Shown here: piece by piece, positions 1 to 20,320 of the stretch
Layout: each line of letters opens with the position of its first letter
How positions within the stretch are numbered: position 1 is the stretch's first letter
From: Pseudomonadota bacterium
GTDB lineage: Bacteria; Pseudomonadota; Gammaproteobacteria; Burkholderiales; Sulfuricellaceae
Assembly (NCBI GenBank): GCA_021801705.1
Contig: JAJYXP010000001.1
Location: 9,581 to 33,580 of the forward strand
Direction of reading: 5' to 3'
Length of the DNA: 24,000 nucleotides
Program-made: the position numbers and the translations under genes
Notes under the pieces: model-generated
What the model saw: the letters and a program-made list of their open reading frames with translations, nothing else
What the model was told of the DNA's origin: nothing
The model's database searches: none

Positions 1-963
1 GCACATTTTATCGCTCGGCCGGCGCAGCCGGAATTTTGCATCCGCGCCGCGGCCGGCGCTGCCCTGCAGCATCCCCCGTTCGTGGGGATTATGGCAGGTG
101 GCGCAAAAAACCTGGCCGTTGGTCGGATCCAGCGGCAACTCCACACCATATTTTTTTTCCGTCTCTTTCATGAATGCGGCGATTTCCGGTGTCGGTTTGG
201 TCAAATGATTCGGGCCCGTCGAACTAATTCCCGGAGGATGCGGAATCCAGGGGTGGCAACCGGTACATAGCTGGGTCAGATCGTCGGTAACGTTGAAGCT
301 GGCGTCGGCGATGCTTTTTACCTGGAACCGGTTCGGGCTGTCGCGGTGGCACGGCAGACAGGCCTTCTTGTTCAGCGTGCCTTCGTCGGTGATCTGGTCA
401 TGCGGATTGAGCCGCTCGTACTGGCTCGGATCATGGCAGTTAAAGCAGAGATCGGTGCGGTACTGAAAGGGTCCGCCGCGAAAGAACATCGGGTTGAGCT
501 TCCGTTCGGCAAAGCGCTCCTTCTGGCATTGCATGGGCAGGTCATGGCAGGCGATGCAGGTGATAACCCCGCCGCCGCGTTTTAACGCTTGGGCGAACGC
601 TTCCGGCATACGGTTTTTCTTTTCCGCAGACGGTTTCATGTCCACCGCATGGATATGGTTCTTAGCCGAATCGGGAACATGGCAGTTGAAGCAAAGCCGG
701 TTGATATTCTTGCCGCGCAACGCCGTATTTTGTGCAGTAGGCCTGCCCTTGTGACAAGCTTGGCAAGCATCCTCTCTCCAGTGGGGATCGGGGATGCGCT
801 CCGGGGTGGTTTTACCGGTGGCGAGCAGATTGGGTATTTCCTCGATCTGCTCGAACAGCCGCTCGTCCCTCGCGACGGCTTTCTTTGTTGGCGGCTCCGC
901 TGCCCACAGCATGGTAAAAGACAGCAGCATGGCTACGCCAACCCACAGCCATTTTAACGCCAT
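1..963 (-). CDS. Secreted multihaem c-type cytochrome (at least 7 haems). The C-terminus lies beyond the window start, and the ORF is absent from the supplied track.
   Basis: Manual minus-strand translation gives ATG at 963-961. Plus-strand frame-1 triplets 1-963 contain no TTA/CTA/TCA, so there is no minus-strand stop. The N-terminus MALKWLWVGVAMLLSFTMLWAAEPP is signal-peptide-like. There are seven CxxCH motifs (CQACH, CFNCH, CIACH, CFNCH, CLPCH, CTGCH, CATCH). The start overlaps the upstream gene's stop by 10 nt (ATGGCGTTAA). Confidence 0.85.
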   Translation of the reverse strand, partial: MALKWLWVGVAMLLSFTMLWAAEPPTKKAVARDERLFEQIEEIPNLLATGKTTPERIPDPHWREDACQACHKGRPTAQNTALRGKNINRLCFNCHVPDSAKNHIHAVDMKPSAEKKNRMPEAFAQALKRGGGVITCIACHDLPMQCQKERFAERKLNPMFFRGGPFQYRTDLCFNCHDPSQYERLNPHDQITDEGTLNKKACLPCHRDSPNRFQVKSIADASFNVTDDLTQLCTGCHPWIPHPPGISSTGPNHLTKPTPEIAAFMKETEKKYGVELPLDPTNGQVFCATCHNPHERGMLQGSAGRGADAKFRLRRPSDKMC

Positions 964-2090
964 GCGCTAACCCCGCCTTCCTGTGTTGCCACAAACAGGG
1001 TGTTATCCGCAAGCATGGGGGCGCCGAATACGGCCGAGCCGATATTTTTTTCCCATACTATTTTGCGTGTATCCAGATCCATGGCGTACAGTCGTCCGCT
1101 CATAGTCCCGATCACTCCTATGCGGTTGGCGCCAACCGTGAAACCGTGACGCAACTCGCTGCCTAGCGATGTTTGCCAGACTACAGCGCCGTCTGCCGCC
1201 TTTAGCCCATACAGCGTTCCATTGTGGCTGCCTATATACAGTATTCCGTCCATCAACAACGGCGTCCCTTGCGGCCAATCCTCCAGTTCCGTCCGCCAGA
1301 CGATGGCCCCGGTGCTTGCGTCGAGCGCATATACGCGGCGGTCATAGGCGCCGAGATAGATCGTGTCTCCAGCCACCAATGGCGCATCATATATGGCAGA
1401 CCCGAGTTCCGTTCGCCAGGCGGGTTTTCCGCTGTGCCGCCAAATTGCGTGGAACACACCATTCTTTGCGCCGATATAGACCCGTTCCTTGTCCAAGCCT
1501 GGCGAGGCATATAATCCGCCGTAGCGGTAATCTTCCGCGTAATAGCGCCAGAGTATCTTGCCGTTGGCAAAATCCAGCGCATACAAAAACAGGTCGTTGC
1601 TGCCCAAATACAGCGTGTCGTCGTCCACCACCGGGGAAGAAAGTATTTTTCCGCCCGTTCTGATCTGCCATTTCTGCTTGCCGGTTTTGGTGTTTAACGC
1701 AGTGACTGTTCCATCTTTGGACGCTACCGCAATGGTCTCCCCTGCTATCACCGGGGTGGCTGAGATGGCGCTGCCAGCGGCATAATTCCATAACACCCGC
1801 CCCCTTTCCTTGTCCAACGCCCACAAGCGCTGATCGTGCCCGGCCACATAGACCGCTTTGCCGCTGGCAACAGGAGAGCCATAGACTCCCCCGCCCAGCT
1901 TGATTTCCCATAGCTTGACGGGGTTTGCCGGGACGGAATGGGTGCTGTGAAAAGTATGGCCGGCATCTCCTCCTATCATCGGCCAATCGGCTGCTCTGGC
2001 TGAGATGATGGTCAAAATCAGTGCGCCGAGGAAAAGTATTTTTAGTTTGCCATCGAAAATCGTCCAATCCACCGAACCGTCCACCTTCAT
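954..2090 (-). CDS. PQQ-like (BamB/YVTN-type) beta-propeller repeat protein, about 8 blades, secreted or N-anchored
   Basis: Lies in ORF 954..2201. About eight ~40-aa repeats end in motifs such as RLWALDKERGRVLW, TVTALNTKTGKQKW, FLYALDFANGKILW, RVYALDASTGAIVW, TLYGLKAADGAVVW and RLYAMDLDTRKIVW. The N-terminus has a hydrophobic stretch LKILFLGALILTIISARA. No CxxCH motif. The start is uncertain: TTG 2201, ATG 2168, ATG 2090, or GTG 2072 preceded by AAGGTGGA. Confidence 0.85.
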   Translation of the reverse strand: MKVDGSVDWTIFDGKLKILFLGALILTIISARAADWPMIGGDAGHTFHSTHSVPANPVKLWEIKLGGGVYGSPVASGKAVYVAGHDQRLWALDKERGRVLWNYAAGSAISATPVIAGETIAVASKDGTVTALNTKTGKQKWQIRTGGKILSSPVVDDDTLYLGSNDLFLYALDFANGKILWRYYAEDYRYGGLYASPGLDKERVYIGAKNGVFHAIWRHSGKPAWRTELGSAIYDAPLVAGDTIYLGAYDRRVYALDASTGAIVWRTELEDWPQGTPLLMDGILYIGSHNGTLYGLKAADGAVVWQTSLGSELRHGFTVGANRIGVIGTMSGRLYAMDLDTRKIVWEKNIGSAVFGAPMLADNTLFVATQEGGVSAWR

Positions 2091-2317
2091 CAGAAAGCGC
2101 CTGCCCGAAACATGCAGTTCCTGTGTTTCGTCTCCGGACGATTTCTGAGGTTGGATACGCCCCGGCATCTTTTTCACTCTCGATAATTCAATGATATACA
2201 AATTATATCAAGGGAATACGATATTGCCATTTGTTATGCCGGGCTTTCATGTGCCCCGTGAAGAACGATACCGATCGCGGTTAAGAAGCCGCAATATTTC
2301 GGCTAGCGCCTGCGGGG

Positions 2318-2351
2318 GAACAAAGGGGGAAACGGTGCGCCCCCTTTGTTC
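2318..2351 (-). terminator. Perfect 12-bp stem / 10-nt loop hairpin immediately after the module-B trihaem gene stop. Possible terminator or mRNA-stabilising stem; it lacks a U-tract.
   Basis: GAACAAAGGGGG (2318-2329), loop aaacggtgcg, CCCCCTTTGTTC (2340-2351). It lies 4 nt downstream of the stop at 2355-2357 on the minus strand. The following sequence is C/G-rich, not T-rich. Confidence 0.4.
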
Positions 2352-2354
2352 GTG

Positions 2355-3260
2355 CTACCTCGGCACCGGAGTCTGGGTCTGCTCCCCGTGCAGTTCGAAA
2401 AACCTGGGCAGGTAGAATTCGCGGTACTTGTTGATCATGCCCACGACCGCGGTATTCTCCAGCCGATCGATCCGGCGCGGAGGATAACCCAGCTCGGCAA
2501 ATGGCAGGTAGGATTTCTCCATGTTATGGCAGTCCTCGCACAGCAACGGCTTTTCGCTTACCTTGTTGTGCATCACCCTCTTCATCCTTGCCTGCTCGGT
2601 AGAATCCATAGCATCTTTTGTTTTCAAGTATTTCGCCAAAAACAACCTTTCCTCGTCACCGTTGATAAAGCGGAAAGTACCGTTATCAGCCTGGGTTCCC
2701 GGGGCGATCTTGGTTCCGTAGTTACCGTATTTCTCCAGATCAGGGGAAACAAGCGCCGGCGGGTTGGCCACCACCTGGCCGGTTTTCTTGTCGTACCAAC
2801 GGAAAGTCCAGGGCGCCTGATCCGGCTTTGCCATGGTATTGATGTGGCAGGTCTCGCAGGCGATATAAAACGCATGCATGTTTAAAAATGCGCGTATGGT
2901 TTTGGCCTTGTTATGGGGCACCGCTCCATGGCACTTTATGCACACATTCGTTTCGTCCGTCTCCACCGTCATGCCGATGTGGTGAAAATGGCCTTTCACG
3001 TATTGCTCCTTTAAGACGACGTAACCCAGGTCGGTGGTTTCCGTCGCTTTCTGTTCCGCCCTGATCTTATGCAACGCTTTTTCTTCTGCGGTTAAAGCTC
3101 CGGGCATTCTCAGGTCGGCGCCGGCGGACGGTTGCGCCGCTTCTTCATGCCCGCCATGGCTAAATATGAGGGGATAGATGAAATAACCGAACCAAATGGC
3201 ATAGGCCATCAGCGCGATTACGTAGAGTTTGCCTATCAGTTGCTTCAAACGACCCAACAT
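2355..3260 (-). CDS. N-terminally membrane-anchored trihaem c-type cytochrome (module B, subunit 3)
   Basis: Lies in ORF 2355..3302. The preferred start is ATG 3260, with GGAG 7 nt upstream (ATG 3302 would overlap the upstream gene by 23 nt). One N-terminal TM helix (LYVIALMAYAIWFGYFIYPLIF). Three CxxCH motifs (CIKCH, CETCH, CEDCH). Paralogous to 5430..6236. Confidence 0.85.
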   Translation of the reverse strand: MLGRLKQLIGKLYVIALMAYAIWFGYFIYPLIFSHGGHEEAAQPSAGADLRMPGALTAEEKALHKIRAEQKATETTDLGYVVLKEQYVKGHFHHIGMTVETDETNVCIKCHGAVPHNKAKTIRAFLNMHAFYIACETCHINTMAKPDQAPWTFRWYDKKTGQVVANPPALVSPDLEKYGNYGTKIAPGTQADNGTFRFINGDEERLFLAKYLKTKDAMDSTEQARMKRVMHNKVSEKPLLCEDCHNMEKSYLPFAELGYPPRRIDRLENTAVVGMINKYREFYLPRFFELHGEQTQTPVPR

Positions 3261-3279
3261 GTCTATTCTCCGGCCTTTA

Positions 3280-4077
3280 TTAGTGCTGAGGTTTGATTTC
3301 ATCCTGGAGGCCCTGTTCCGTCATGACCTTCACATATTCGGCGTAATGCTCGTGAATCATGTCATCTTCCGAGAGATACCCGGTGATGAATACCGTGCCC
3401 AGGGGGAATTTCTCGGGCGCGTAGTGCACGTTGTACCAATGGACGAAGAAGATGAACAGGGCCGCCAGCAAGGCCTCGTCGGTATGCATGATGTAGAGGG
3501 CGTTCAACACGATGCCGGGGAGGAAGTGGGTGAACTCATCCCGCCACCAAAGAATAAAGCCGGCCGGACCCAGAACGGGAATACCCCAGTAGGGCGCATA
3601 GTAGTCGAACTTCTCCTTCCAGGACATGCGGTCATAGCGCGGCGGCCGGTTGGTGAAGTAAAGAAGATACCTGAACATGTCGATCAGGTCGTAGAAATCC
3701 TTCTTGTTCGGAATCATCGGCTGGTTTAGAAATTCTCTGCCGACATTGCCCAAAGTAAGATCCCCTGCCCTTTTCAGGGGCAACACCCGTCTGGTGTAGA
3801 ACAGGTAAATCCAGTAAATGGTATGGTAGACGAACAAGCCCAGCAGGATGGAGCCGGCGATGTGGTGAAGCACCGGTGCAACGTTAATCCCTCCCATAAA
3901 GTTGATGAGAGGCTCCGCCCACGCCTTATCGTGGTATTTCAAGGGGAATCCGGTTAGAGACAGCGTGATCACGGTGGTGAACACCACGACGTGCTGCAGC
4001 CGCTGATGCAATGAGAACCGGAAGAAGTACCTCTTCCCGTTCCTTTCGCATATCTTTTTATATTTCGGCATAGACAT
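3280..4077 (-). CDS. Four-TM b-type cytochrome, HydC/FdnI-like (Ni/Fe-hydrogenase / formate dehydrogenase gamma type), putative dihaem (module B, subunit 2)
   Basis: 265 aa. TM1 RLQHVVVFTTVITLSLTGF, TM2 VLHHIAGSILLGLFVYHTIYWI, TM3 YYAPYWGIPVLGPAGFILWW, TM4 IMHTDEALLAALFIFFVHWYNVHY. The His residues are conserved with paralog 6229..6951. GAGGG Shine-Dalgarno sequence upstream of ATG 4077. Confidence 0.85.
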   Translation of the reverse strand: MSMPKYKKICERNGKRYFFRFSLHQRLQHVVVFTTVITLSLTGFPLKYHDKAWAEPLINFMGGINVAPVLHHIAGSILLGLFVYHTIYWIYLFYTRRVLPLKRAGDLTLGNVGREFLNQPMIPNKKDFYDLIDMFRYLLYFTNRPPRYDRMSWKEKFDYYAPYWGIPVLGPAGFILWWRDEFTHFLPGIVLNALYIMHTDEALLAALFIFFVHWYNVHYAPEKFPLGTVFITGYLSEDDMIHEHYAEYVKVMTEQGLQDEIKPQH

Positions 4078-4112
4078 ACAGTTACCCTCAATCAGTGCGC
4101 GTTTTCAACTTG

Positions 4113-5183
4113 TTATCTGGAGGAATGATGATCATCGCCCGTCGGTTTCACGAAGGAGTAATGGGGAAAGAGCCTCCTTAACAACTCCAGGAAGATAAGC
4201 GTCAGGAAGAAATACAACACGCCTGCCGTCAGCCAGGTAAAAAATACCAACATGTAATGCTGCAAGGGATACTTGTCTTTGTCATAGGTAACGTGAACCT
4301 GATAACCGGCCAGCTTTTCACCCGCTTTTTCATGGCATTCGGAGGTGCGGCAGGTGGTCGGAACATTCTTCTTGTTGCTGGCCGATGTCGGGGATTTCTT
4401 GCTTTCGATGAAGTGCACGCCCTCTCCCTTGACAACGTGGCAATCGGTGCAATCCGGCGTTTCCTGCGAGCCAAACAGCAGCGCCTTGTAATGGTAGGTT
4501 TCCTTATAGGAGGTAACCACGTCGTCCAGCTTGTGCCGCTGCTGGAACTCTTTATCGCCGTGGCACTTGGCGCAGATTCCCACGATTTCCTTCGGATCGC
4601 GCATCTTGCGCAGCCGCGAGGTCACGTGCTTGTAAAAGGATTCGGCGAAATCGCCCGTGCGGTGGCAGGTCTGGCAGCGGGCCAACCCACGCTCCGACAC
4701 GCCACTGCTTTTGCCCTTGAAAAAAGACAGGGGGCGGTACAGCGGTTCTTCGTGACAGTCCTTGCAACCGGGGTAGTCTTGCTGGTCTTTTTTGGGCTTT
4801 CCGTCCGCGTCCAGCTTGCCGTGAACGCTCTTGGCCAGCAGATCAGATACTGGTTTGTGTGAAAAATTTTTCTGGCCTGAGGGCTCGATTAAATGGCACT
4901 CGGTGGTGCACTCGACCTTCTTGGCGGGATCATGGGGGATTTTCTTGATATCCTGATGGCAGTCCGCACACTTTATCCTGACGTGAGGGCCTTCCTTGAA
5001 AATAGCCTCGTTGATGTAAAACAGCCGGAATTTACCGTTTTCATCTATGCGGCTCAGGCCTCGATACTTGTGGCAGAGAAGGCAGTCCAATTCATCCTCG
5101 GCATTAACGGCTCCTGCTATGCCGCAGAGCAACAAAGCTGCAAGGAGCGTAACGACGCGCGTTTTGAAGAATGACTTACCCAT
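4113..5183 (-). CDS. Multihaem c-type cytochrome with signal peptide and C-terminal TM anchor; 6 CxxCH + CX3CH + CX4CH (module B, subunit 1)
   Basis: 356 aa. Signal peptide MGKSFFKTRVVTLLAALLLCGIAGAVNA. Motifs in order: CLLCH, CADCH, CTTECH, CKDCH, CQTCH, CAKCH, CTDCH, CRTSECH. C-terminal helix YMLVFFTWLTAGVLYFFLTLIFLELL. Confidence 0.9.
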   Translation of the reverse strand: MGKSFFKTRVVTLLAALLLCGIAGAVNAEDELDCLLCHKYRGLSRIDENGKFRLFYINEAIFKEGPHVRIKCADCHQDIKKIPHDPAKKVECTTECHLIEPSGQKNFSHKPVSDLLAKSVHGKLDADGKPKKDQQDYPGCKDCHEEPLYRPLSFFKGKSSGVSERGLARCQTCHRTGDFAESFYKHVTSRLRKMRDPKEIVGICAKCHGDKEFQQRHKLDDVVTSYKETYHYKALLFGSQETPDCTDCHVVKGEGVHFIESKKSPTSASNKKNVPTTCRTSECHEKAGEKLAGYQVHVTYDKDKYPLQHYMLVFFTWLTAGVLYFFLTLIFLELLRRLFPHYSFVKPTGDDHHSSR

Positions 5184-5429
5184 TGGCCAGCCCTTTTCTT
5201 ATTTTGTCAAACTCTTGCCAAGCCACTTCCGCATAGCAGCGCAGTGCTTAAAGTTAATCCCGGCAAACCAAGCAGCTTTGTACCCACCTCCAGGGGGGGA
5301 ATTCGGGTTTATTCGACGCCGCCCCGCCCTTTATCAGAACATAGTAAGATAAGAATATCTTCATATCCTAAACATTGCAATACGTTCACACCGGTTTTTT
5401 ATGCGTCTATAAATATATTTTTGGCCGCC

Positions 5430-6236
5430 TTATTGGTGGCTGCGTGCGTCATGGAGCGTGGGCAGATAAAATTCCTTATACTGTTTTATTATGGTTGCCC
5501 CATCGCCGAATTCCAGGCGCTGCGCCCTTTCCGGCGAATACAAGAGCCGGGTGAAATCAAGCATTCCGTTTTCCTTGTGACATTGGCCACAAAAAACGGG
5601 TTTCGCTGACAAATCCTTATGAATCTCCGTGTTAAGGCGGTCCTTCAGTTTCCGTAAATCTCCATTGCCCTCGTTTTTTCCGGTATCGTCGGGAAGCAGG
5701 TTGGCGGCCACGGCTTCGTCGAGAAGCGGGCCTGCGGATGCGTTTTCGTCAAGTCGTTTGGCAACCCCTTTTTCGGCCCTGAATGGAACGATAGTGCCGC
5801 CATAATCCCCCGGTTTGCCCTTCAGCTCCGTCAATGTAAGATTTGAGCCGCGCTGCAGCCATTTGTACTCGAACCGTTCACCTTCTTTAGGCACGATGTG
5901 GCAAACCTCGCAAGCCATGAAGAACGAATGGGCATTGAGAATTCCCCGCACCTCTTTGGACTTTGAGTGCGAATAATCCTTATGGCACTTCAGGCACCAC
6001 GACTGTGACTTGCCCCCCTCGAGTACGGATTCGCCGGCGCCGTGAAAGGGCTCATAAACCATCTCCCGACGAGGGACGGCGCGTTTCGCCAGCGCCTCTT
6101 CACTTTGGGATGCGTCCCTGAAGTATGTAAGCCACAGCAACCAGGCGGAAAAAGCTGCCAGCAGGATAAAAATGATCGCCATCGTAAGATGGACGAAAAA
6201 TTTCTTCGGAGCGCCGGCAATGCCACCCTTATGCAT
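5430..6236 (-). CDS. N-terminally membrane-anchored trihaem c-type cytochrome (module A, subunit 3)
   Basis: Lies in ORF 5430..6299. The preferred start is ATG 6236, with GGAGG 9 nt upstream and an 8-nt overlap with the upstream stop. TM helix VHLTMAIIFILLAAFSAWLLWLTYF. Three CxxCH motifs (CLKCH, CEVCH, CGQCH). The shared C-terminal motif KQYKEFYLP matches NKYREFYLP in the paralog. Confidence 0.85.
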   Translation of the reverse strand: MHKGGIAGAPKKFFVHLTMAIIFILLAAFSAWLLWLTYFRDASQSEEALAKRAVPRREMVYEPFHGAGESVLEGGKSQSWCLKCHKDYSHSKSKEVRGILNAHSFFMACEVCHIVPKEGERFEYKWLQRGSNLTLTELKGKPGDYGGTIVPFRAEKGVAKRLDENASAGPLLDEAVAANLLPDDTGKNEGNGDLRKLKDRLNTEIHKDLSAKPVFCGQCHKENGMLDFTRLLYSPERAQRLEFGDGATIIKQYKEFYLPTLHDARSHQ

Positions 6237-6951
6237 TGCCACGCCCTCCCACTGCGCCGTTCGCGGGTTTTGACGCTTCTTCCGCAATGATTCTTTCATA
6301 CCAGAGCGAATGTTCTTCCTTCATCAGCGTCTCGGAGATCTTGCCGTCGATAAAAGCCCTGTTCATCGGATAAACGTGCGGATTGTAATGAACTGCGAAA
6401 ATATGCCCCACAATAATTGCAAGCGCGGCGAGAGTCGCCTCTCCCAAATGGAGCGCATCTGCCACATCGAGATAGAATTTGGGCCAGTATGATTGCGTCC
6501 ACATCATGGCGCCGGTACTGATCACGATGAACATGCCGAAGTAGACGGAGAAGTATTCCAGCTTCTCAAGATAGGTGAAACGGTCCAGCCTGGGCCGTTC
6601 CTTCCGCAGACCCAACATATACATGACATTCTGATAGGCATCCACAAGGTCCCTCGGTTTCGGCAGCATGTCGCGGAACCAGCTTTTGCCATCAGCCTTG
6701 AACATGACATAGTAGAGGTGATAAAAGCACACGGCGGTGACGGCCGCTGCAGCAATGCGGTGAACGATTCCGCGCCAGTAGAAGATGGTCTTTCCGGCCG
6801 CGCCAAGCAAATCTACAGCCGACCTTTCACCCATCAACATAAAGCCGGTGATGATCAGCAAAGTAGTTGAAACGAACATGATGGCATGCTGGACTCTTTC
6901 GCTCCTCGTAAGCCTGACGAAGGCTTTTTCGCTCTTTCCGTGACGGCTCAT
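6229..6951 (-). CDS. Four-TM b-type cytochrome, HydC/FdnI-like, putative dihaem (module A, subunit 2)
   Basis: 240 aa. TM1 RVQHAIMFVSTTLLIITGF, TM2 GIVHRIAAAAVTAVCFYHLYYV, TM3 YFSVYFGMFIVISTGAMMW, TM4 LHLGEATLAALAIIVGHIFAVHY. ATGA start/stop overlap with the upstream cytochrome at 6948-6951. Confidence 0.85.
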   Translation of the reverse strand: MSRHGKSEKAFVRLTRSERVQHAIMFVSTTLLIITGFMLMGERSAVDLLGAAGKTIFYWRGIVHRIAAAAVTAVCFYHLYYVMFKADGKSWFRDMLPKPRDLVDAYQNVMYMLGLRKERPRLDRFTYLEKLEYFSVYFGMFIVISTGAMMWTQSYWPKFYLDVADALHLGEATLAALAIIVGHIFAVHYNPHVYPMNRAFIDGKISETLMKEEHSLWYERIIAEEASKPANGAVGGRGNA

Positions 6952-8096
6952 CTCAGTGCCCCCTCCTTCTTGCTATCCCGGTGCGTTGCATAAAGATCCA
7001 GCAGCCTGTGACCACCGAGCCCGCCGATCACGGCAGCGATGAGAATCTGATAAAAAAGTTTTATCCAATGCAACACCTTGGCCTGGAATATTTCCCTGTT
7101 CCGCGCGGCATCCGCGCTTTCTTCAGACTCCTCCATCAGATGCGCCACCTTGACCGGGGATATGTGCACCTTGCTGCCCGTGGCAAACTCCTTCGTCGCA
7201 TTGACGTGGCAGCCGGACTGCGAACACGTTGCACGCTTGTTGTCCGCATTGGTCGGCGATTTTTTGTTCCGCTTGGAAGTGATTCGGTGAGGTGAAAAGC
7301 CCAGCGCATACGGTGCATGGCAATTCAGGCAGTTAGCCACTTCCACGTCCCCGTATTGAATCGCTTTGGCATGGTAAGTATCCTGAAATCCGGCTATCAC
7401 ATCCAGTTTATGCCTCGCCATGATCCCCGGGTTCGCGTGGCATTTGCTGCAAAGCTTGACCACGTCCGCCGAGGGCCTCCGAATCGAAGCGCGGTAAGTG
7501 ACATGGCGGAAAAAACGCTCTGCCCATGCCTGCTCTTCATGGCACTGATGGCAAACCTGCAGGAATGCCATCGATTTGGCCTGTCCTTGAAAACCGAGTT
7601 GGTAAGGCTTATTGGCATGGCAGTCCCTGCAGGCGGGCAAATCGTCTTTGTTTTTTGACAGCGAGCCCTCAACGCCGTGTGTGCTTTTTTTCAGGTCTTC
7701 CACAATCGCCTTGTGGGAGAAAACCTTGCCGGTGGAGGGCTCAATCACGTGACAGGATTTACCGCAATCTACTTTTTTCGCACCCGTGTGAGGAATCTTG
7801 TCCACCCCTTCATGGCAGTCCGAGCAATTCAACTTTCCATGATACGAGGCTTGGTGCAAATCCTCATTGACATAAAAGACCCTCTTCACGACCCGTTTTT
7901 TGGCGTCTATTTCATAACGCCCCAAGCCGGGGTACTTGTGACACATGAGGCACGTGTCTTGACCTTCGGATGCAAAGACTGGAGAGGGGGGCAAGGCTAT
8001 CGCCGCGGCAAGGGCAACGCCCGAAAGACAAGTCCAGAAACTCCCTTGCATGCGCGTGATAGCGGCAGGCTTGCATCCTGGTAATTGAAGCCTCAT
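6948..8096 (-). CDS. Multihaem c-type cytochrome with signal peptide and C-terminal TM anchor; 6 CxxCH + CX3CH + CX4CH (module A, subunit 1)
   Basis: Lies in ORF 6948..8144. The preferred start is ATG 8096 (GAGGA 6 nt upstream); ATG 8051 is an alternative. Signal region SGVALAAAIALPPSPVFA. Motifs in order: CLMCH, CSDCH, CGKSCH, CRDCH, CHQCH, CSKCH, CLNCH, CSQSGCH. C-terminal helix IKLFYQILIAAVIGGLGG. Confidence 0.9.
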   Translation of the reverse strand: MRLQLPGCKPAAITRMQGSFWTCLSGVALAAAIALPPSPVFASEGQDTCLMCHKYPGLGRYEIDAKKRVVKRVFYVNEDLHQASYHGKLNCSDCHEGVDKIPHTGAKKVDCGKSCHVIEPSTGKVFSHKAIVEDLKKSTHGVEGSLSKNKDDLPACRDCHANKPYQLGFQGQAKSMAFLQVCHQCHEEQAWAERFFRHVTYRASIRRPSADVVKLCSKCHANPGIMARHKLDVIAGFQDTYHAKAIQYGDVEVANCLNCHAPYALGFSPHRITSKRNKKSPTNADNKRATCSQSGCHVNATKEFATGSKVHISPVKVAHLMEESEESADAARNREIFQAKVLHWIKLFYQILIAAVIGGLGGHRLLDLYATHRDSKKEGALR

Positions 8097-8360
8097 CCGT
8101 TTTCCTCGCCCTTTGCAGGTAATTTGACGGGCTTGGCAAGCCAAGCCGGGGCAGGCTCATATCCGCACCCCGCATTCACGCGGGTTGGTTTGATGGTGAT
8201 TTATCGCAAGCCGCAGCATCGCGCTTGCTTCACCGACAAAACCGCTGCGCCTAGCAACATTCTAGCAAATTATTTACGGAAATAAAGATCCTGATATCTG
8301 CTTAATGGCCTGAATGCTGCTGTTTTTTTCCTCCCTTTCGCTGCGGGCAACGCCGCCCCG

Positions 8361-9347
8361 TCAATCGTTCAATTTATAGACGGAAATTTTGTTGCGCAAC
8401 ATCTCTGCCGCATAAAGCCGGTTGTCCCGGCCCACGGCGATACCTCCCACCGACACGAAGCGCTGCGGCGCGCCGTCTTGCCCCAGAACGCGCAAAAACT
8501 TCCCGTCAGCGTCAAAAACCTGGATCACGTCCATATAGCTGTCGCTGATATAGACTTGATTTTTTTCGTCGACGGCCACGCCTTTCGGACGGTAGAGCTC
8601 CCCTGGAAGCACCCCCCAAGATCCGATCTGGACGAGCAGCGCACCTTCTTCATCGAATGCCTGAGCACGGGAATTAAGAACGTCCACGACATACACCGTC
8701 CCGTTGGACGCCATCGCTACGGTTGCCGGATAGCGGAACCGCCCATTGCCCTCGCCGTATCCGCCCCACTGGCGCACCATCTTGCCGGAGCCTGAAAATC
8801 TCATGACCTTGTTGTTGGCGGAGACGTAGATTTTTGCACCGGAAGCATCCGCCGCCACATCGATGGGGCGCACCGCCACCCCTTTGTCGATAACCGGGAA
8901 TGCGTATTGGAAATGACCCTCGGCGCTGAATACCTGGATGCGGTGGTTACCGGTATCGGCTACGTACACGCGGCCCCTGCCGTCGGTCCCGATGCCGACC
9001 GGGTCTTTGAATTGCCCTTCAGCCGATCCCTTCCGGCCAAAGCTGAGAAGATACCTGCCATTGCGGTCAAAAACGACCACGCGCTGGTTTCCGCCGTCAA
9101 CCACATAAATGCGGTCATCGCTGCCGAGCGCCACATCGGAAGGCAAGGACAGCCCACCGGCTCCCTGGCCGGTAACTTCAAACAGGAGGCGAACGCTTGC
9201 AGTGGGGATGCCGGCGGCGAATGATGCGCTAAGCCAGCCTGCGAGCATGGCTGAAAGGACCGCTCGCAATGCTTGCCGGAGCGTGGCGTTGCGCCCCCAT
9301 GGGCTGGGCAGACCTGTTTCCAGCGCCCGTGCTCCCCATCGTGGCAT
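8361..9347 (-). CDS. Secreted six-bladed NHL-repeat beta-propeller protein
   Basis: Lies in ORF 8361..9401. Six NHL-type repeats, for example FKDPVGIGTDGRGRVYVADTGNHRIQVF and LYRPKGVAVDEKNQVYISDSYMDVIQVF. Hydrophobic signal-like stretch AVLSAMLAGWLSASFAA. Start uncertain: TTG 9401 with GGAGG 10 nt upstream, or ATG 9347. Confidence 0.85.
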   Translation of the reverse strand: MPRWGARALETGLPSPWGRNATLRQALRAVLSAMLAGWLSASFAAGIPTASVRLLFEVTGQGAGGLSLPSDVALGSDDRIYVVDGGNQRVVVFDRNGRYLLSFGRKGSAEGQFKDPVGIGTDGRGRVYVADTGNHRIQVFSAEGHFQYAFPVIDKGVAVRPIDVAADASGAKIYVSANNKVMRFSGSGKMVRQWGGYGEGNGRFRYPATVAMASNGTVYVVDVLNSRAQAFDEEGALLVQIGSWGVLPGELYRPKGVAVDEKNQVYISDSYMDVIQVFDADGKFLRVLGQDGAPQRFVSVGGIAVGRDNRLYAAEMLRNKISVYKLND

Positions 9348-9419
9348 TTTTTTAGTCTCCGGCGGATTCAAGTTCGAAGCGCAACAGCGAATCGTGAACA
9401 AGTATAGCGCACCTCCCTG

Positions 9420-9743
9420 CTATTCGTTCAAGGCCAACAGAATCAGCCCTGCAAGGATGGCAAAGAGAACGATCCAGCCGACAATCCTGATAGCGGTTCC
9501 GACAGTATCGCCCGGGCCGTCCTTCCCTGCCGCGGGCATTCCAACAAAAAAACCGATCTCGCTGCCATACCATATGCAGCCAAGCGGAAGAACCAGAACG
9601 GCAATCGCAAGGTGGAGAATCTCGTGTTTTACCAGGAAGTGGGCTACTGCCATACACACGATTGCCACTAAAATCGATGCAACACGTCCGGCATCCAATC
9701 CCTCGGCTTCCACTTCACGATGCCCCTCGTTCAAGTGCTGCAC
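9420..9743 (-). CDS. Small hypothetical integral membrane protein (about 3 TM)
   Basis: 107-aa ORF with a GTG start. Hydrophobic segments VASILVAIVCMAVAHFLV, LHLAIAVLVLPLGCIWY and IRIVGWIVLFAILAGLILLAL. No recognisable family. It is co-oriented between the Rrf2 and NHL genes. Confidence 0.5.
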   Translation of the reverse strand: MQHLNEGHREVEAEGLDAGRVASILVAIVCMAVAHFLVKHEILHLAIAVLVLPLGCIWYGSEIGFFVGMPAAGKDGPGDTVGTAIRIVGWIVLFAILAGLILLALNE

Positions 9744-9888: not shown

Positions 9889-10353
9889 CTAGCCCAGTTC
9901 CGCATCCAGAATTGTCGCCGGCAGATCGCGAATGCGGTATTTCCCGCTTTGCACCGCCACGGCCAGCCGCTCGAGGGTATGCTCGTGCATCATGGCGACA
10001 ATTTTTTCCTTGATCGGCTTCCATTTCGAATGCACCGGGCAGGCGGTTTCCTCGCTGCATATTTTCAGACCCAGCACACAGTTTTCACTAAAGCCGACGC
10101 CTTCAATCAGCGTCACAATCTGCATCAAGTCGGTCTTTTCGCCCCCCTCTCGCAGGCAGAACCCCCCTTGGCGGCCACGGTAGGAATAGAGCAGGTTTCC
10201 CCTGCACAAGCTTTGCATGATTTTGGCGAGATAGGCCGTGGGGACACCAAGATATTCCGCAACCTTGCGGTTAAGAATAGGCTCGCCGCGCGGTTGCGTA
10301 GCAATGTAAATCAGCGCCTGGATTGCGTACTGGCTGGTTCGGGATAAAATCAT
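9889..10353 (-). CDS. Rrf2-family transcriptional regulator with a putative Fe-S-binding Cys triad (NsrR/IscR-like)
   Basis: Lies in ORF 9889..10425. The likely start is ATG 10353 (MILSRTSQYAIQALIYIA, the typical Rrf2 N-terminus, with GGAG 5 nt upstream). wHTH region VAEYLGVPTAYLAKIMQSL. Cys cluster CVLGLKICSEETAC (C-x6-C-x5-C). Confidence 0.85.
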   Translation of the reverse strand: MILSRTSQYAIQALIYIATQPRGEPILNRKVAEYLGVPTAYLAKIMQSLCRGNLLYSYRGRQGGFCLREGGEKTDLMQIVTLIEGVGFSENCVLGLKICSEETACPVHSKWKPIKEKIVAMMHEHTLERLAVAVQSGKYRIRDLPATILDAELG

Positions 10354-10448: not shown

Positions 10449-11126
10449 TCAGTCCAACAACGCCATCCGAAGCAAGCCGGCCACCTCATCGGCGGACAGG
10501 CCTTCCTGATATGGCACCTCACCAAGCAGGGGTGCTTGCAGTCCATGTTCCAGTGCCGCCACATTTTCCCTTAAAAACGGCATGCCGGGTTCGATCTGAT
10601 TCGCCACCCACCCGGCAAGCCTGAGGCCGCGCTGCTTCATAACCTGGGCGGAAAGCAAGGCGTGATTCAGGCAACCCAGCCGCATGCCGACCACCAAAAT
10701 TACGGGAACCCCAAGCCGCTGGGCCATATCAGCGGTATCCTCGCGCCGATTGAGCGGCACCATGAAACCGCCGACACCTTCGACCACCACCACATCGGAC
10801 ATTGCCTGCAATCGCCGGAAAGCGTCCAGCACAGTCCCGATGCCAATTTCCACGCCGGCCCGCTCGGCGGCGATATGGGGGGCAACGGGCAGAACCAGTG
10901 CGTACGGATTGACCAGCTCAGGCGGCGCCGCAACATTGCCTGCGGCACGCAGACTTTCCACATCCGCGCAGCGCAGCCCGCCGGTTGTTTCCTCACAGCC
11001 GGCGGCGACCGGCTTCATGCCAACCGCCCGAAAACCGCGGCTGACGAAAGCACGAAGCAACGCACTGGCAATCAGGGTCTTGCCTACATTGGTATCGGTG
11101 CCGGTGATGAAATAAGCTTTTTTCAT
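10449..11126 (-). CDS. bioD: Dethiobiotin synthetase
   Basis: N-terminal P-loop MKKAYFITGTDTNVGKT. 225 aa. Last gene of the bio cluster. Confidence 0.9.
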   Translation of the reverse strand: MKKAYFITGTDTNVGKTLIASALLRAFVSRGFRAVGMKPVAAGCEETTGGLRCADVESLRAAGNVAAPPELVNPYALVLPVAPHIAAERAGVEIGIGTVLDAFRRLQAMSDVVVVEGVGGFMVPLNRREDTADMAQRLGVPVILVVGMRLGCLNHALLSAQVMKQRGLRLAGWVANQIEPGMPFLRENVAALEHGLQAPLLGEVPYQEGLSADEVAGLLRMALLD

Positions 11127-11268
11127 GAGGGATAAAACCGTTTAACCGCAGCGGAACGGCAAGATCAAAACCGCCGGCCAACCCAAATGGCGCAAACGAA
11201 GGAAATAAGCTTTTTCAAAGAGTTCAAGGTTTTCCTCTCTGCGCCCTCCGCGTCCGCTGCAGTGAAGA

Positions 11269-12147
11269 TTATTTTTTAGCAAAACGCACCACCTGCGCCC
11301 CGTCCGGCAGCTTCGGCTGCCTTTTCTCGCCTTTCCAGGCATGACCGTACACTACCTCATAGGTCGCCGGCAGCTTGCCGTCGCGGCGCAGCGCCTCGTA
11401 ACTCTGCTGCACACGCTGCCAGGCGGTCTTGCCCAGCAGGCCACGGCGGCGCCCCTGATTGGCGTTGTGCGCGCCCAGCGCCTTGAGGTCGCGCATCAAG
11501 CCTGCCAGGTCGGCATAGGTCAGGGTGATGGTTTCCATGTCCATCACCGGCGCGGCGAAACCCGCCCCCATCAGCGCATCGCCGACATCGTGCATGTCGG
11601 GAAAACGGTTGACATGGGCATAAGAATCCAGCGCGCCGAATGCCTGGCGCAATTCCTTCAGGGTGTCCGGGCCGAGGGTGCTGAACATGAGCAGCCCGCC
11701 GCTTTCCAGCGCTCGCCACATGCCGCCGAAGGTCGCATCGAGATCGTTGCTCCATTGCAACGCCAGGTTGGACCAGATCATGCCGACGCTCCCGGCGCGC
11801 AAAGGCAGGTTCTCGATGTCTCCGCACACCCGTTCTTCGCCGGCCAAGAACGGCAGCAGGCGCTTCCACGCGGGCTGGTGGCCACGCGACGCCAGCAGCA
11901 TGGCCGGCGCAATGTCCAGTTCTATCACGCGCGCCTTGGCATAGCGTTCCCGCAACTGCCGCGAGCCGTAGCCGGTACCGGAGCCGGCATCGAGAATAAG
12001 ATTAGGCTCGTATTTGATGTATTGCAGGCGCCCGGCCATGCGGTCGCAGATTTCCCGCTGCAGCACCGCCACCCGGTCGTAGGTGGCAGCGGCGCGGTCG
12101 AAAGAGCGGCGCACCCGGCGCTTGTCCAGCGTGAATTGGTCAGTCAT
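11269..12147 (-). CDS. bioC: Malonyl-ACP O-methyltransferase
   Basis: SAM-methyltransferase motif ILDAGSGTGYG. N-terminal FDRAAATYD. 8-nt overlap with the bioH stop. Sits between bioH and bioD. Confidence 0.85.
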   Translation of the reverse strand: MTDQFTLDKRRVRRSFDRAAATYDRVAVLQREICDRMAGRLQYIKYEPNLILDAGSGTGYGSRQLRERYAKARVIELDIAPAMLLASRGHQPAWKRLLPFLAGEERVCGDIENLPLRAGSVGMIWSNLALQWSNDLDATFGGMWRALESGGLLMFSTLGPDTLKELRQAFGALDSYAHVNRFPDMHDVGDALMGAGFAAPVMDMETITLTYADLAGLMRDLKALGAHNANQGRRRGLLGKTAWQRVQQSYEALRRDGKLPATYEVVYGHAWKGEKRQPKLPDGAQVVRFAKK

Positions 12148-12904
12148 GCAAAAATCCGGTCACAATCTCGGTAAATTTCCCAGGGTGGGACAAAAACGGC
12201 GCATGGGCGGCGCCCGGCAGCACATTCAGACGCGCGTCCGGCATCCGTTCGGCCAGCCATCTGGCCGCGCCCACCGGCGTGAGCATGTCGCGCTCGCCAT
12301 GCAGCAGCAAAGCCGGCGTTTTCACGGCAGCGGCGCGGTCGCGCAAATCGGTTCCGAGCAAAATACCGAGCCCCGCCCGCAAAGCTTCAGCGCTCGGACG
12401 CCCCTTGGCAAACAAGTTGTCACGCAGGCGTTTCAGCACCGTTTTGACTGCGTCATCGCCGCGCGCCTGCAGCGCCAGAAAACGCTTCAACGTGCCATCG
12501 CAATCCGATTCCAGCGCGGCGGCGAATTCCAGCAGCACATCGCGTTCCACCGCCCACGGCCACTCGTCTTTTATCGTGAAGCATGGCGTGGTGGCCACCA
12601 AAACCAGGCGCGACACTTTTTCCGGGTAAAGCGATGCCATTTCCAGCGCCACCTGCCCGCCCAGCGACCAGCCGCAAACGGCCGCCCTCTCCGGCAGCGC
12701 TGCCGCCACGGCGTGGATGAGATTTTCCAGTTCGCAAGGATCGAGCGCAGGACTGGCGCCATGGCCGGGCAAATCCACCAGATGCAGGCGAAAACGCCGC
12801 GCCAGGTCGTCGCGCACCCCGTCCCACACCCCGCCATGCATGCCCCAACCGTGGAGCAGCGCTATATCTGCGCCCATCCCAACCGTTTCGACGAACACGC
12901 TCAA
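12140..12904 (-). CDS. bioH: Pimeloyl-ACP methyl ester carboxylesterase
   Basis: Alpha/beta hydrolase with LLHGWG and the nucleophile elbow GWSLGG. TTG start overlapping the bioF TGA (TTGA). Context bioF-bioH-bioC. Confidence 0.85.
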   Translation of the reverse strand: MSVFVETVGMGADIALLHGWGMHGGVWDGVRDDLARRFRLHLVDLPGHGASPALDPCELENLIHAVAAALPERAAVCGWSLGGQVALEMASLYPEKVSRLVLVATTPCFTIKDEWPWAVERDVLLEFAAALESDCDGTLKRFLALQARGDDAVKTVLKRLRDNLFAKGRPSAEALRAGLGILLGTDLRDRAAAVKTPALLLHGERDMLTPVGAARWLAERMPDARLNVLPGAAHAPFLSHPGKFTEIVTGFLHD

Positions 12905-14064
12905 AGGGTGCGCTCCAGCGCGTTCAGCGCTTCCACCAGCCGGGCAATATCTGCATCACTATGCGCCGCTGACAGGGAAATGCGCAGGCGCGCCTCGCCC
13001 TTCGGCACGGTGGGCGGCCGAATCGCCGGCACGCAGATGTTGCGCTTGCGCAGCGCCTCGCTCACCGCCAGCGTTTCCTTGTTGCTGCCGATAATGACCG
13101 GCTGGATCGGCGTGATTGATTCCATCAGACGCCAGCGCTCCAGCTTGAGCCCCTGCTTCAGGGCAGCGATGAGTTGCCGCAGCCGCGCCTGCCGCCAGGC
13201 CTCGTTTTCGATCAGCTCCAGGCTGGTGGAAAGGGCCGCCGCCAGCGCTGGCGGCATGGCGGTTGTATAGATGTAGGTGCGGGCGCGTTGCACCAGAAAA
13301 TCCACCAGTTCGGCCGGCCCGGCGGCAAAGGCGCCAAACACGCCGGCGGCTTTGCCCAGCGTTGCCATGTAAATGATCCGCTCCGACGGCGCGATGCCGA
13401 AATGTTCGAGCACGCCGCGCCCGGTTCTTCCCAACACGCCGAAGCCGTGCGCGTCATCCAGCAGCAGCAACGCATCATGGCGCTCGCACAGGGCGAGCAA
13501 CTCAGGTACCGGAGCGATATCGCCGTCCATGCTGAATACGGCATCCGTCACCACCAGCTTGCGCCTCGCCCTGGAAGCGGCAAGGCGCTTCTCCAGTGCC
13601 GAAAGGTCGAGATGCGGATAGCGGCTATGCCTGGCGCGAGACAGCAGCGCTGCGTCGTTGAGCGAGGCGTGATTGAGCTTGTCGGCGAAAATCTCGTCAT
13701 TGCGCCCGACCAGGGCGCTAACGATGCCGAGATTGGCCATGTAGCCGGTGGAAAACAACAATGCCGCCTGCCGGCCGGTAAAGCTGGCCAGCGTCTCTTC
13801 CAGCCGATGATGCGGCGCCATATGCCCGCCCGCCAGGTGCGACGACCCTGCTCCCAGACCATATTGCGCTGCCGCCGACTTGAGCGTGTCGACCAGGGCT
13901 GCATGATTGGCCAACCCCAGATAGTCGTTGCTGCTGAAGGACAGGCAATGCATGTCGCCCACCATGACGCGCGCGCCCTGGGGGCCCTTCAGCACGTGCC
14001 GCCGCCGGCGCAACCCTTGCTCTTCCAGCAGGTTCAGCGCTTCAGTCAAAGGAGAGAAGGACAC
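12901..14064 (-). CDS. bioF: 8-amino-7-oxononanoate synthase
   Basis: PLP-dependent class-II aminotransferase fold: SNDYLGL, LLLDDAHGFG and the PLP-lysine motif ATLGKA. 387 aa. Confidence 0.9.
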   Translation of the reverse strand: MSFSPLTEALNLLEEQGLRRRRHVLKGPQGARVMVGDMHCLSFSSNDYLGLANHAALVDTLKSAAAQYGLGAGSSHLAGGHMAPHHRLEETLASFTGRQAALLFSTGYMANLGIVSALVGRNDEIFADKLNHASLNDAALLSRARHSRYPHLDLSALEKRLAASRARRKLVVTDAVFSMDGDIAPVPELLALCERHDALLLLDDAHGFGVLGRTGRGVLEHFGIAPSERIIYMATLGKAAGVFGAFAAGPAELVDFLVQRARTYIYTTAMPPALAAALSTSLELIENEAWRQARLRQLIAALKQGLKLERWRLMESITPIQPVIIGSNKETLAVSEALRKRNICVPAIRPPTVPKGEARLRISLSAAHSDADIARLVEALNALERTL

Positions 14065-14104
14065 GGGGTGAACCGGACGCAGCTTGAATGGCCGGGATCG
14101 CTGC

Positions 14105-15103
14105 TTACGCTTCGGCGCCCATGGCGCGAATGCCCAGCTTGTCGAACAAAGCCAGGTCCTGGTCCGCGGAGGGGTTGGGCGTGGTCAGCAATTTCTCGCC
14201 GTAGAAAATGGAGTTGGCGCCGGCCAGGAAACACAGCGCCTGGAGCGGTTCCGCCATCTGCTCACGCCCGGCGGAAAGACGTACCAGGCTTGTCGGCATG
14301 GTGATGCGTGCCACCGCGACAGTACGCACAAACTCGAACGGGTCGAGCGCCGCAACGTCTTGCAGTGGCGTGCCCGGCACCTGTACCAGCAAGTTGATCG
14401 GGACGGACTCCGGCGGCGGATTGAGGTTGGCGAGCTGGGCAATCAGCGCGGCACGGTGAGTACGCGTTTCGCCCATGCCCACGATGCCGCCGGAACACAC
14501 CTTGATGCCCGCCTGGCGCACTTCGCCGAGCGTGTCCAGCCGATCCTGATAGGTGTGGGTGGTGACCACCTCACCATAATATTCCGGCGCGGTATCCAGG
14601 TTATGGTTGTAGTAGTCCAGCCCGGCTTCGCGCAACTGCTCCGCCTGGCCTTCCTTGAGCATGCCCAGGGTAACGCAGGTTTCCAGCCCGAGTGCGCGCA
14701 CTGCGGTTATCATGTCGAGCACCGGCTTCAGGTCTTTCTGCTTCGGGCCGCGCCAGGCCGCGCCCATGCAGAAACGCGTGGCGCCCTTGTCCTTGGCCGC
14801 CTTGGCCTTCGCCACCACGGTTTCCAGTTCCAGCAGGTTTTCCTGTTCCACTTCGGTGTGGTGGCGTTTGGACTGCGAGCAGTAGCCGCAGTCCTCGGAG
14901 CAGCCGCCGGTCTTGATCGAAAGCAGGGTGCTCACCTGCACCTCGTTGGGATCGAAATGGCTGCGATGCACGCTTTGCGCCCGGAATATCAGGTCGCTGA
15001 ATGGCAGGTCGAACAAAGCCTCGGCTTCCGCCACCGCCCAGGGGGCGCGCGCCCGCATCTCGCTGCCCGCCGCGACGAACTGGGCATTCAGCATCTCATT
15101 CAT
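14105..15103 (-). CDS. bioB: Biotin synthase (radical SAM)
   Basis: Radical-SAM motif [13 protein letters not shown]. 332 aa. First enzymatic gene of the bio cluster. Confidence 0.95.
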
Positions 15104-18101: not shown

Positions 18102-18550
18102 GCGCCCCACACCTGGCTGGCCAACACATATCCAGCCTGGCCGCCGCGATGGCGCACTTTCAGCCAGCCGGAAGCGCCTTGTTCCACCAGTTCCAGCACG
18201 ACGTCCCGCTCGGCCTGGAACACCAGCGGCGCAGTGCTATCCGCCGACTGGCGGACATCGGCACGAGCCGCCGTCACCACCACCATGCGCGCATCGCCCA
18301 AGTTTTTCTTTTCGATCCAAGCCAGGCCGCCGGCACTATCGCGAACCTTGGCCCACTGGTCGAGGTTGACGATGATTTCAAATGGATAGTATTTCCCCAC
18401 CAGGAACAAACGCTTCGCCTGCACCGAGGGGGCGTCGTAGAGGACAGCGCGATCCGTCGCGACAGAACGGTAATCCAGCGCCGGGGCGCTGGACGAAAAC
18501 CCGAAAAACAGAAACAGGCACAGCCCGGCAAAGAGGGAGAGCCTTACCAT
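18098..18550 (-). CDS. Secreted bacterial SH3-domain protein
   Basis: Lies in ORF 18098..18598. Signal peptide [24 protein letters not shown] from ATG 18550 (alternative starts 18574 and 18598). Two SH3-like segments ([30 protein letters not shown] and [29 protein letters not shown]). Confidence 0.7.
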
Positions 18551-18578
18551 CACTGCGCCGGTTCTGCCCACCATGACA

Positions 18579-19040: not shown

Positions 19041-19086
19041 GAAGTTCCCTAACTAGAAATAAAATAAATAAATTTGCCGGCCAGAA

Positions 19087-19506: not shown

Positions 19507-19522
19507 CGCCGACTTCCCGTGT

Positions 19523-20229: not shown

Positions 20230-20320
20230 AAGTTTACCAGTAATTTATCGTCTATACTCAATTTGAGGGTTGTAATCATCACCCATTATTCAAACCGGCA
20301 ATTAGCGAGAGGGTCTGTTA

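Follow-up and report, generated by a model that had tools for sequence, protein, structure and literature searches.

A 24,000-nucleotide stretch of DNA from a Pseudomonadota bacterium of the Sulfuricellaceae (GCA_021801705.1, contig JAJYXP010000001.1, positions 9,581 to 33,580 of the forward strand; hereafter the window) carries two diverged versions of one three-gene module, each of which encodes a membrane cytochrome b between two membrane-anchored multihaem cytochromes c. These c-b-c triads, designated A and B, are probably (at a probability of about 0.6) Cbc-like quinone:multihaem-cytochrome oxidoreductases that feed a periplasmic or extracellular electron transfer chain, with A, B, and a third type from related genomes, C, kept as specialised ancient paralogues. 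The observations behind this reading are homology, architecture, conservation, selection, gene fusions, and gene neighbourhood. The triads consist of six intact, co-directional open reading frames (ORFs) on the minus strand, with A at 8096-5430 and B at 5183-2355:

6948..8096, minus strand: A1, octahaem cytochrome c that bears a signal peptide and is anchored by a C-terminal membrane helix
6229..6951, minus strand: A2, FdnI / PF01292-like cytochrome b, dihaem-type, with four helices
5430..6236, minus strand: A3, trihaem cytochrome c anchored in the membrane at its N-terminus, with a haem region akin to part of octahaem tetrathionate reductase
4113..5183, minus strand: B1, paralogue of A1 with the same eight haem motifs, signal peptide, and C-terminal helix
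3280..4077, minus strand: B2, paralogue of A2 with about 25 additional residues in the loop after helix 2
2355..3260, minus strand: B3, paralogue of A3

Identical contigs are present in public metagenome-assembled genomes (MAGs), namely GCA_027438235.1, GCA_023382095.1, and several ENA/Logan assemblies. The public gene calls on them use the same starts and give products of 382, 240, and 268 amino acids (aa) for A and 356, 265, and 301 aa for B; the longest-ORF start is 8144 for A1 and 3302 for B3.

The two modules are homologous gene by gene and in the same order, as the original prediction had claimed from short peptide comparisons. BLASTP aligned A1 with B1 at 35% identity over 323 aa (E 4e-64, 197 bits), A2 with B2 at 26% over 253 aa (E 1e-28, 96 bits), and A3 with B3 at 28% over 228 aa (E 2e-24, 87 bits). 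Against these 197, 96, and 87 bits, the maximum in 100 shuffles was 24 bits, and the other multihaem cytochromes of the cluster reached only 27-31 bits with A1 or B1. When all CX2-4CH motifs were masked, A1 and B1 still matched at E 2e-27 and A3 and B3 at E 2e-11. Because the homology survives masking, the similarity between A and B is not restricted to the haem motifs. The three peptide pairs quoted in the original prediction are found exactly as given, and the anchoring that it assigned to the three subunits (a C-terminal helix, four transmembrane helices, and an N-terminal helix) agrees with hydropathy and with an AlphaFold model of A2.

Subunit 2 is related to the membrane subunit of formate dehydrogenase-N. 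A2 scores 59.8 bits against Pfam PF01292, over the cut-off of 30.1, and B2 falls under it at 24.3 bits; most B orthologues do carry PF01292. A profile of 27 orthologues has Escherichia coli FdnI (1kqf_C) as its sole PDB match, at full length (E 4e-9). Similarly, the AlphaFold model of A2 consists of four long helices (pLDDT 73), and in a fold search of the PDB its only significant match was again 1kqf_C (E 8e-8, TM 0.67-0.73). The FdnI haem ligands His18, His57, and His169 align with A2 H22, H64, and H188 in helices 1, 2, and 4. Across all paralogue clades, six membrane histidines are invariant (A2 H22, H64, H78, H168, H183, and H188). The spacing of H64/H78 (i,i+14) and of H168/H183 (i,i+15) is as in bc1 or NarI-type b cytochromes, and the cytochrome b may have an alternative ligand set or a third cofactor. 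The formate dehydrogenase gamma models (TIGR01583 / NF007558) gave 52.8 and 27.3 bits relative to a cut-off of 115.85, which places subunit 2 outside that family.

Subunit 1 begins with a signal peptide and, by hydropathy, ends in a membrane helix followed by a basic tail. Six of the eight haem motifs of A1 are CXXCH, one is CX3CH (CGKSCH), and one is CX4CH (CSQSGCH); the corresponding atypical motifs of B1 are CTTECH (CX3CH) and CRTSECH (CX4CH). All eight motifs and nine further histidines are invariant in 77 homologues from clades A, B, and C. A PDB sequence search with subunit 1 found no relative, the top match being NrfB at E 0.011. A b-haem ligand supplied by a histidine of the subunit 1 helix, in the style of CbcA, was considered and rejected, as the position is not conserved: the residue at the start of the helix is H/Y/F/G/D/A in clade A, H/Y/S in clade B, and H/Y in clade C. 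The cytochrome b itself holds a complete set of histidines. Clade C versions of subunit 1 have a distinctive Arg/Trp-rich cytoplasmic tail.

Subunit 3 has one N-terminal membrane helix, three CXXCH motifs, and four further invariant histidines. Its profile matches the Shewanella octahaem tetrathionate reductase structure 1sp3 at E 1e-6, over two electron-transfer haem stretches only. Scores against TIGR04315 are weak (23-35 bits against a cut-off of 375), and the subunit has three haems where members of that family have eight, including a catalytic Lys-ligated haem. From the count of motifs and extra histidines, every c haem of the triad has a candidate second His ligand, and no haem requires an open site. 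All of the c haems appear to be bis-His, which suggests that the triad complex only moves electrons. The signal peptide, the anchor topology, and the positive-inside tails agree with periplasmic haem domains.

The triad recurs as a unit well beyond the window. When one genome per GTDB species was searched with the A2 profile, 44 distinct loci were recovered, all in MAGs. Their hosts are Gallionellaceae, Sideroxydans, Sulfuricella, Sulfurimicrobium, Nitrosomonadales, Rhodocyclaceae, Methyloversatilis, Sedimenticola(ceae), Polarisedimenticolaceae, Thiohalomonadaceae, Thiotrichaceae, Ca. Thiodiazotropha, and two 'Deltaproteobacteria'; the closest relative of the window genome (95%) is 'Proteobacteria bacterium FK1.bin35'. 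In the surveyed loci, 71 of the 79 cytochrome b genes are flanked by both cytochromes in c-b-c order. Additionally, a HMMER search of 1.84 billion representatives with a profile of A and B cytochromes b matched 2996 clusters at E <= 1e-3, of which 809 reached E <= 1e-30. The best 149 library representatives include about 60 c-b fusions, 450-930 aa long (for instance P0260, P0270, and P0275), 8 b-c fusions (including P0250-P0254), and about 6 c-b-c triple fusions (including P0264, P0311, P0348, and P0320). These proteins, from Armatimonadota, Schekmanbacteria, and unnamed metagenome bins, follow the gene order of the triad, and their fused c domains have 5 to 19 haems. The predicted topology suits such fusions, as the subunit 1 tail, both ends of the cytochrome b, and the N-terminus of subunit 3 are all placed in the cytoplasm. 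Natural c-b, b-c, and c-b-c fusions provide Rosetta-stone support for a single complex, and the triad is thus an evolutionary unit and probably a physical one as well. Neither Pfam nor NCBIfam has a model specific to the triad, and homologue, profile, and cluster look-ups gave only generic or hypothetical names. No family name or description was found in the literature, including that on Thiodiazotropha, although coverage was incomplete and an earlier description is possible. Papers on Nitrosomonas extracellular electron transfer and on cable-bacteria flockers contained nothing of relevance.

Phylogenetic comparison indicates that the paralogues are old. A neighbour-joining tree of 76 cytochrome b sequences has three clean clades, A, B, and C, each of which splits into betaproteobacterial and Thiodiazotropha/gammaproteobacterial subclades. 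Mean cytochrome b identity is 0.65-0.77 within clades and 0.29-0.31 between them. The 44 loci contain A only (24), A and B (7), all three cassettes (12), or A and C (1), and B occurs without A in loci L054 and L056. Cassette C is about 30% identical to A and B and is absent from the window genome; it lies at 1516-4852 in L007, at about 800-3700 in L011-L018 and L048, and at 4616-7837 in L053. The order and orientation of the cassettes also vary. In most betaproteobacterial MAGs, C, B, and a small membrane protein gene are on the minus strand, the NHL propeller gene and A on the plus strand, and an octahaem cytochrome gene and a PQQ-propeller gene on the minus strand again. In Thiodiazotropha, a single strand carries octahaem cytochrome, C, signal peptidase, B, A, NHL protein, and a 20-haem cytochrome. 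The arrangement of the window, in which A and then B are followed by propeller, octahaem, and 24-haem cytochrome genes, is shared only with FK1.bin35. Ancient clades together with shuffled cassettes imply that the A/B pair consists of juxtaposed paralogous cassettes. Therefore, of the old tandem duplication that had been proposed for this locus, the great age stands (three clades, about 30% identity between them), but duplication in situ does not.

Both copies are under constraint. Relative to two relatives, dN/dS is 0.07-0.34 for all six genes, which is purifying selection, and about 20 other genomes hold intact orthologues of each copy; the view that both are maintained intact is thereby borne out, and inactivation of one copy was not found among these orthologues. 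Between A and B, 32 cytochrome b positions are fixed in a clade-specific manner, some of them near the presumed quinone site. Four residues past the equivalent of FdnI His169, the residue is H in clade A, E in clade B, and G in clade C, and clades B and C have about 25 more residues than A in the loop after helix 2. The fixed positions and the loop difference are compatible with different tuning of the quinone site or of redox potential. It is plausible, judging from these sequences, that A, B, and C are specialised for different potential windows, directions, or partners.

As a separate observation, the B-like triad of L056 (55-11461, in a Nitrospirae MAG) is directly 3' of an aa3-type cytochrome c oxidase operon comprising genes for SCO1, COX1, COX3, COX4, COX2, and haem O synthase, and is followed by an NHL protein and a large cytochrome.

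The modules also differ in how their genes are joined, exactly as the original prediction had described. A1 and A2 share an ATGA overlap at 6951-6948, and A2 and A3 an 8-nt overlap, ATGCATAA, at 6236-6229. The genes of module B are separated by spacers of 35 nt and 19 nt, with a GAGG/GGAG-type Shine-Dalgarno sequence ahead of each downstream gene. Ca. Thiodiazotropha likewise has the A1/A2 ATGA overlap and spaced B genes. Three non-coding features accompany the triads:

5184..5429, minus strand: gap between A and B, 246 nt, AT-richer
2321..2348, minus strand: hairpin CAAAGGGGG...CCCCCTTTG, 10-bp stem directly 3' of the B3 stop, terminator-like, without a clean T tract
8130..8147, unstranded: palindrome GGCTTGGC-nn-GCCAAGCC, about 35 nt 5' of the A1 start

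The gap may carry a separate promoter for B; a consensus promoter site was sought in it and none was found. FK1.bin35 retains the palindrome, and MAG260 does so in part; it may act as an operator or fold into a hairpin in the 5' leader. Beyond this one conserved palindrome, comparison of the regions upstream of A1, B1, the propeller gene, the small membrane protein gene, and the Rrf2 gene yielded no convincing shared operator or sigma-54 motif.

The A/B pair is part of a larger cluster that includes an NHL propeller, a PQQ-like propeller, an 8-haem cytochrome, and a 24-haem cytochrome:

9889..10353, minus strand: regulator of the Rrf2 family whose CX6CX5C motif is typical of Fe-S-binding members (IscR/NsrR-like)
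9420..9743, minus strand: small three-helix membrane protein, 107 aa, no family match
8361..9401, minus strand: NHL-repeat beta-propeller with a signal peptide (NHL 102 bits)
2202..2230, minus strand: sigma-70-like promoter, by consensus match only, 5' of the propeller gene: ATGGCA-17-TATAAT (10/12, with TG)
954..2201, minus strand: PQQ/BamB-like beta-propeller with an N-terminal signal or anchor; public gene call from 2168
1..963, minus strand: octahaem periplasmic cytochrome c that loses its last 6 codons to the window edge (327 aa on the full contig)
17142-20342 of locus L001, outside the left end of the window: 24-haem cytochrome following the octahaem gene, 1066 aa, 24 CXXCH, signal peptide

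The 1066-aa cytochrome has a repeating CXXCH pattern with seven Paired_CXXCH_1 matches, and relatives of it in other loci, with 18-24 haems, are usually encoded straight after an NHL gene. Within 10 kb of the A-type cytochrome b, an NHL gene is present in 28 of the 44 loci and another cytochrome with at least 8 haems in 27. Betaproteobacterial MAGs conserve the 107-aa protein at 42-57% identity, next to either the B cassette or the NHL gene; an Rrf2 gene directly 5' of the cluster occurs only in the window genome and FK1.bin35. In Sulfurimicrobium-type MAGs, the propeller-octahaem pair comes after genes for an NHL lipoprotein, a cytochrome with 4 haems, and a secreted protein of 613 aa. The 613-aa protein (14119-15960 in L015, minus strand, between the 4-haem cytochrome and the PQQ-like propeller) is Ser/Asn/Gly/Tyr-rich and has no Pfam match. 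A candidate outer-membrane barrel, it recurs at homologous positions in L011-L018, L022, and L048; the window genome has no counterpart within 10 kb.

Quinone coupling, direction, extracellular reach, and specialisation are what we infer from these data. Each triad would form one inner-membrane complex. In A2 and B2, two b haems would span the membrane, with a quinone site near the cytoplasmic haem by homology to FdnI, and on the periplasmic face the cytochrome b would be flanked by the octahaem cytochrome, tethered by its C-terminal helix, and the trihaem cytochrome, tethered by its N-terminal helix. Electrons would pass out of the quinone pool via the b haems to an 11-haem periplasmic array, or in reverse, without a catalytic site. 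Onward exchange would involve the co-encoded 8-haem and 24-haem periplasmic cytochromes and the NHL and PQQ-like propellers, and the resulting chain would be periplasmic and probably extracellular. If the geometry of FdnI holds, the complex would be electrogenic: delivery of low-potential electrons from outside to quinone would make proton-motive force, as in formate dehydrogenase-N, and passage from quinol to the periplasmic haems would use it, as in reverse loops of the PhsC type. Energy consumption of this kind is established for PhsC-type anchors.

Reversible quinone:multihaem-cytochrome electron transfer would be the simplest function, and such a role has been suggested both for CbcBA, CbcL, and ImcH of Geobacter and for the MtoC/CymA proteins of iron oxidisers. 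The analogy that had been drawn to inner-membrane bc-type cytochromes of Geobacter is apt in design, CbcBA being the closest parallel. G. sulfurreducens CbcBA (Cbc5; GSU0593-0594) consists of the 7-haem CbcA, which has a C-terminal helix, and the four-helix dihaem CbcB, and is a proposed inner-membrane quinol:cytochrome c oxidoreductase for extracellular electron transfer, with potential-graded use beside ImcH and CbcL. As in the triad, a C-terminally anchored multihaem cytochrome c is encoded directly before a four-helix PF01292-type cytochrome b. However, the c subunit of the triad has 8 haems rather than 7, and the triad adds an obligatory, N-terminally anchored trihaem subunit. A helix histidine of CbcA is a proposed b-haem ligand, whereas its equivalent in subunit 1 is not conserved and is an unlikely one; regulation of CbcBA is of the sigma-54/BccR type, whereas the neighbour of the triad is Rrf2. 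The hosts of CbcBA are metal reducers and those of the triad belong to sulfur- and iron-oxidiser lineages, and the comparison of the two systems is one of design. The same holds for the fused c-b proteins of the CbcL/MtoC/MtrH family, which occur in metal reducers and iron oxidisers, are thought to be bidirectional, and likewise join a multihaem cytochrome c and a HydC/FdnI-like cytochrome b in one unit. Their six helices are in one polypeptide, whereas the triad distributes six (1+4+1) over three genes and has in addition an Otr-like trihaem subunit. None of the fused c-b relatives that were looked up carries a CbcL or MtoC name. E. coli FdnI (1KQF chain C) resembles A2 in its full-length profile and fold match, four helices, and aligned histidines on helices 1, 2, and 4, but its partner is an Fe-S subunit, whereas the partners of the triad cytochrome b are haem c proteins.

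By gene content, the cluster is also similar to operons of sulfate reducers in which a six-bladed NHL-type propeller is encoded beside secreted cytochromes with 16-26 haems, and which are implicated in extracellular electron exchange (Skennerton 2017; Deng 2018). Here too an NHL gene and a 24-haem cytochrome are in one cluster; the published descriptions of those operons include a peptidyl-prolyl isomerase, which the present cluster lacks, and no cytochrome b triad. Several other systems were considered and rejected. Uet and PCC3/PCC4 resemble the triad loci as multihaem and NHL clusters in lithotrophic Proteobacteria, some of them Gallionellaceae. The Uet cluster of Ca. Tenderia, examined for its NHL and trihaem genes, is without a cytochrome b. 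It is defined by the undecahaem UetJ, the 28-strand barrel UetC, a cupredoxin, and an isomerase, none of which was found in the window or the full contig, only the NHL protein being common to both. The inner-membrane protein of PCC3/PCC4 of iron oxidisers is a five-helix protein with two WX3HX13H motifs, and a barrel gene is in the cluster; the triad has a four-helix FdnI-type cytochrome b and no barrel gene within 10 kb. Cbc3 of Geobacter, tried as a c-b-c match, combines an Fe-S protein with a cytochrome b and a cytochrome c of 5 haems.

Some of the evidence weighs against an oxidoreductase of the proposed kind. Every triad carrier is a MAG, and confidence in the A2 model is moderate (pLDDT 73). 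The six invariant membrane histidines, compared with four in FdnI (H78 and H183 being extra), make it uncertain which histidines bind haem and, with that, where the quinone site lies. In the window genome, no outer-membrane barrel gene was found within 10 kb, which weakens the case for extracellular reach. Additionally, about 15 divergent A-type triads stand alone among unrelated or housekeeping genes; a check of their neighbours for a partner found none that was consistent. The triad can therefore be self-sufficient, and its link to large cytochromes is not obligatory.

These observations invite other explanations. The triads might serve a periplasmic enzyme for a soluble S or N compound (tetrathionate or thiosulfate type) as its membrane anchors and points of electron entry, with no extracellular route. 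Such a role would suit the 1sp3 match of subunit 3 and its weak TIGR04315 scores, the hosts, which are mainly sulfur oxidisers, the one lone triad that adjoins a SoxYZ gene, and the thiosulfate reductase anchor PhsC, which is in the same cytochrome b superfamily. It is nevertheless unlikely, since the alignment to 1sp3 is confined to electron-transfer haems and the family scores are far below their cut-off, each haem has a candidate second His ligand, no conserved catalytic subunit adjoins the triads, and the recurring neighbours are instead NHL propellers and 8- to 24-haem cytochromes. Still further from the data is an identity of the cytochromes b as gamma subunits of formate dehydrogenase or hydrogenase, as suggested by JGI names such as 'cytochrome b subunit of formate dehydrogenase' and by weak TIGR01583 and TIGR02125 matches. 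Those matches reach 27-53 bits, compared with equivalog cut-offs of 116-341, and genes for molybdopterin, Fe-S, or NiFe subunits are in none of the loci, where the flanks are always cytochromes c; this gene context effectively refutes the identity.

The relationship between the two triads can also be viewed differently. It is improbable that A and B are obligate partners acting in series within one hetero-oligomeric supercomplex. A adjoins B in 19 of the 44 loci, often with C as well, both are on one strand here with no strong terminator in between, and formate dehydrogenase-N, the structural reference, is an oligomer. Yet A occurs without B in 24 loci and B without A in two, the cassettes are divergently transcribed in most betaproteobacterial relatives, and fusions link subunits inside one triad, never between triads. 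Redundancy of A and B, with no division of labour and the second copy kept by dosage or chance, is similarly improbable. Architecture, haem motifs, and conserved histidines are identical in both copies, but the low identity between clades relative to that within them (about 30% vs 65-77%), the conservation of both clades across proteobacterial classes, and strong purifying selection on each copy all argue for distinct roles, as do the 32 fixed differences, including the H/E/G site, and the differences in loop length and gene-junction style. Quinone-coupled complexes kept as specialised paralogues remain the preferred reading.

The remainder of the window lies upstream of the cluster. A complete biotin operon (in the order bioB, bioF, a bioH-like hydrolase gene, bioC, and bioD; 10449-15103, minus strand) is directly 5' of the Rrf2 gene and co-directional with the cytochrome cluster. 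Further annotated genes are:

17118-18110, minus strand: GpsA
18579-19040, minus strand: SecB
19087-19593, minus strand: thioredoxin 2 with a zinc ribbon
19783-20229, minus strand: rhodanese-domain protein
20865-23996, minus strand: AcrB-type RND transporter, running into the window edge

The step from the quinone pool to periplasmic cytochromes is the least understood and least predictable in extracellular electron transfer, and it sets the energy kept by the cell. Few modules for it are known beyond Geobacter and Shewanella, and the inner-membrane entry point in neutrophilic iron and sulfur oxidisers is still debated among bc1, alternative complex III, CymA, and MtoC. A tentative extension of the present interpretation, which for now is doubtful, is that the triad represents an undescribed modular family of quinone-coupled electron gates and a widespread route of electron exchange with minerals or partners, in which one to three paralogues are potential-graded or direction-specific. 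If true, the gates would serve uncultured sulfur- and iron-oxidising Proteobacteria, including symbionts of lucinid clams (Ca. Thiodiazotropha) and Gallionellaceae, and the paralogues would separate uptake that makes proton-motive force from discharge that uses it. A conserved, readily recognisable three-gene cassette with a slowly evolving cytochrome b would serve as a genomic marker of this electron-transfer capacity in uncultured lithotrophs and chemosynthetic symbionts, and the A/B/C series would be a natural system in which to study how electron gates are matched to redox potential or direction.

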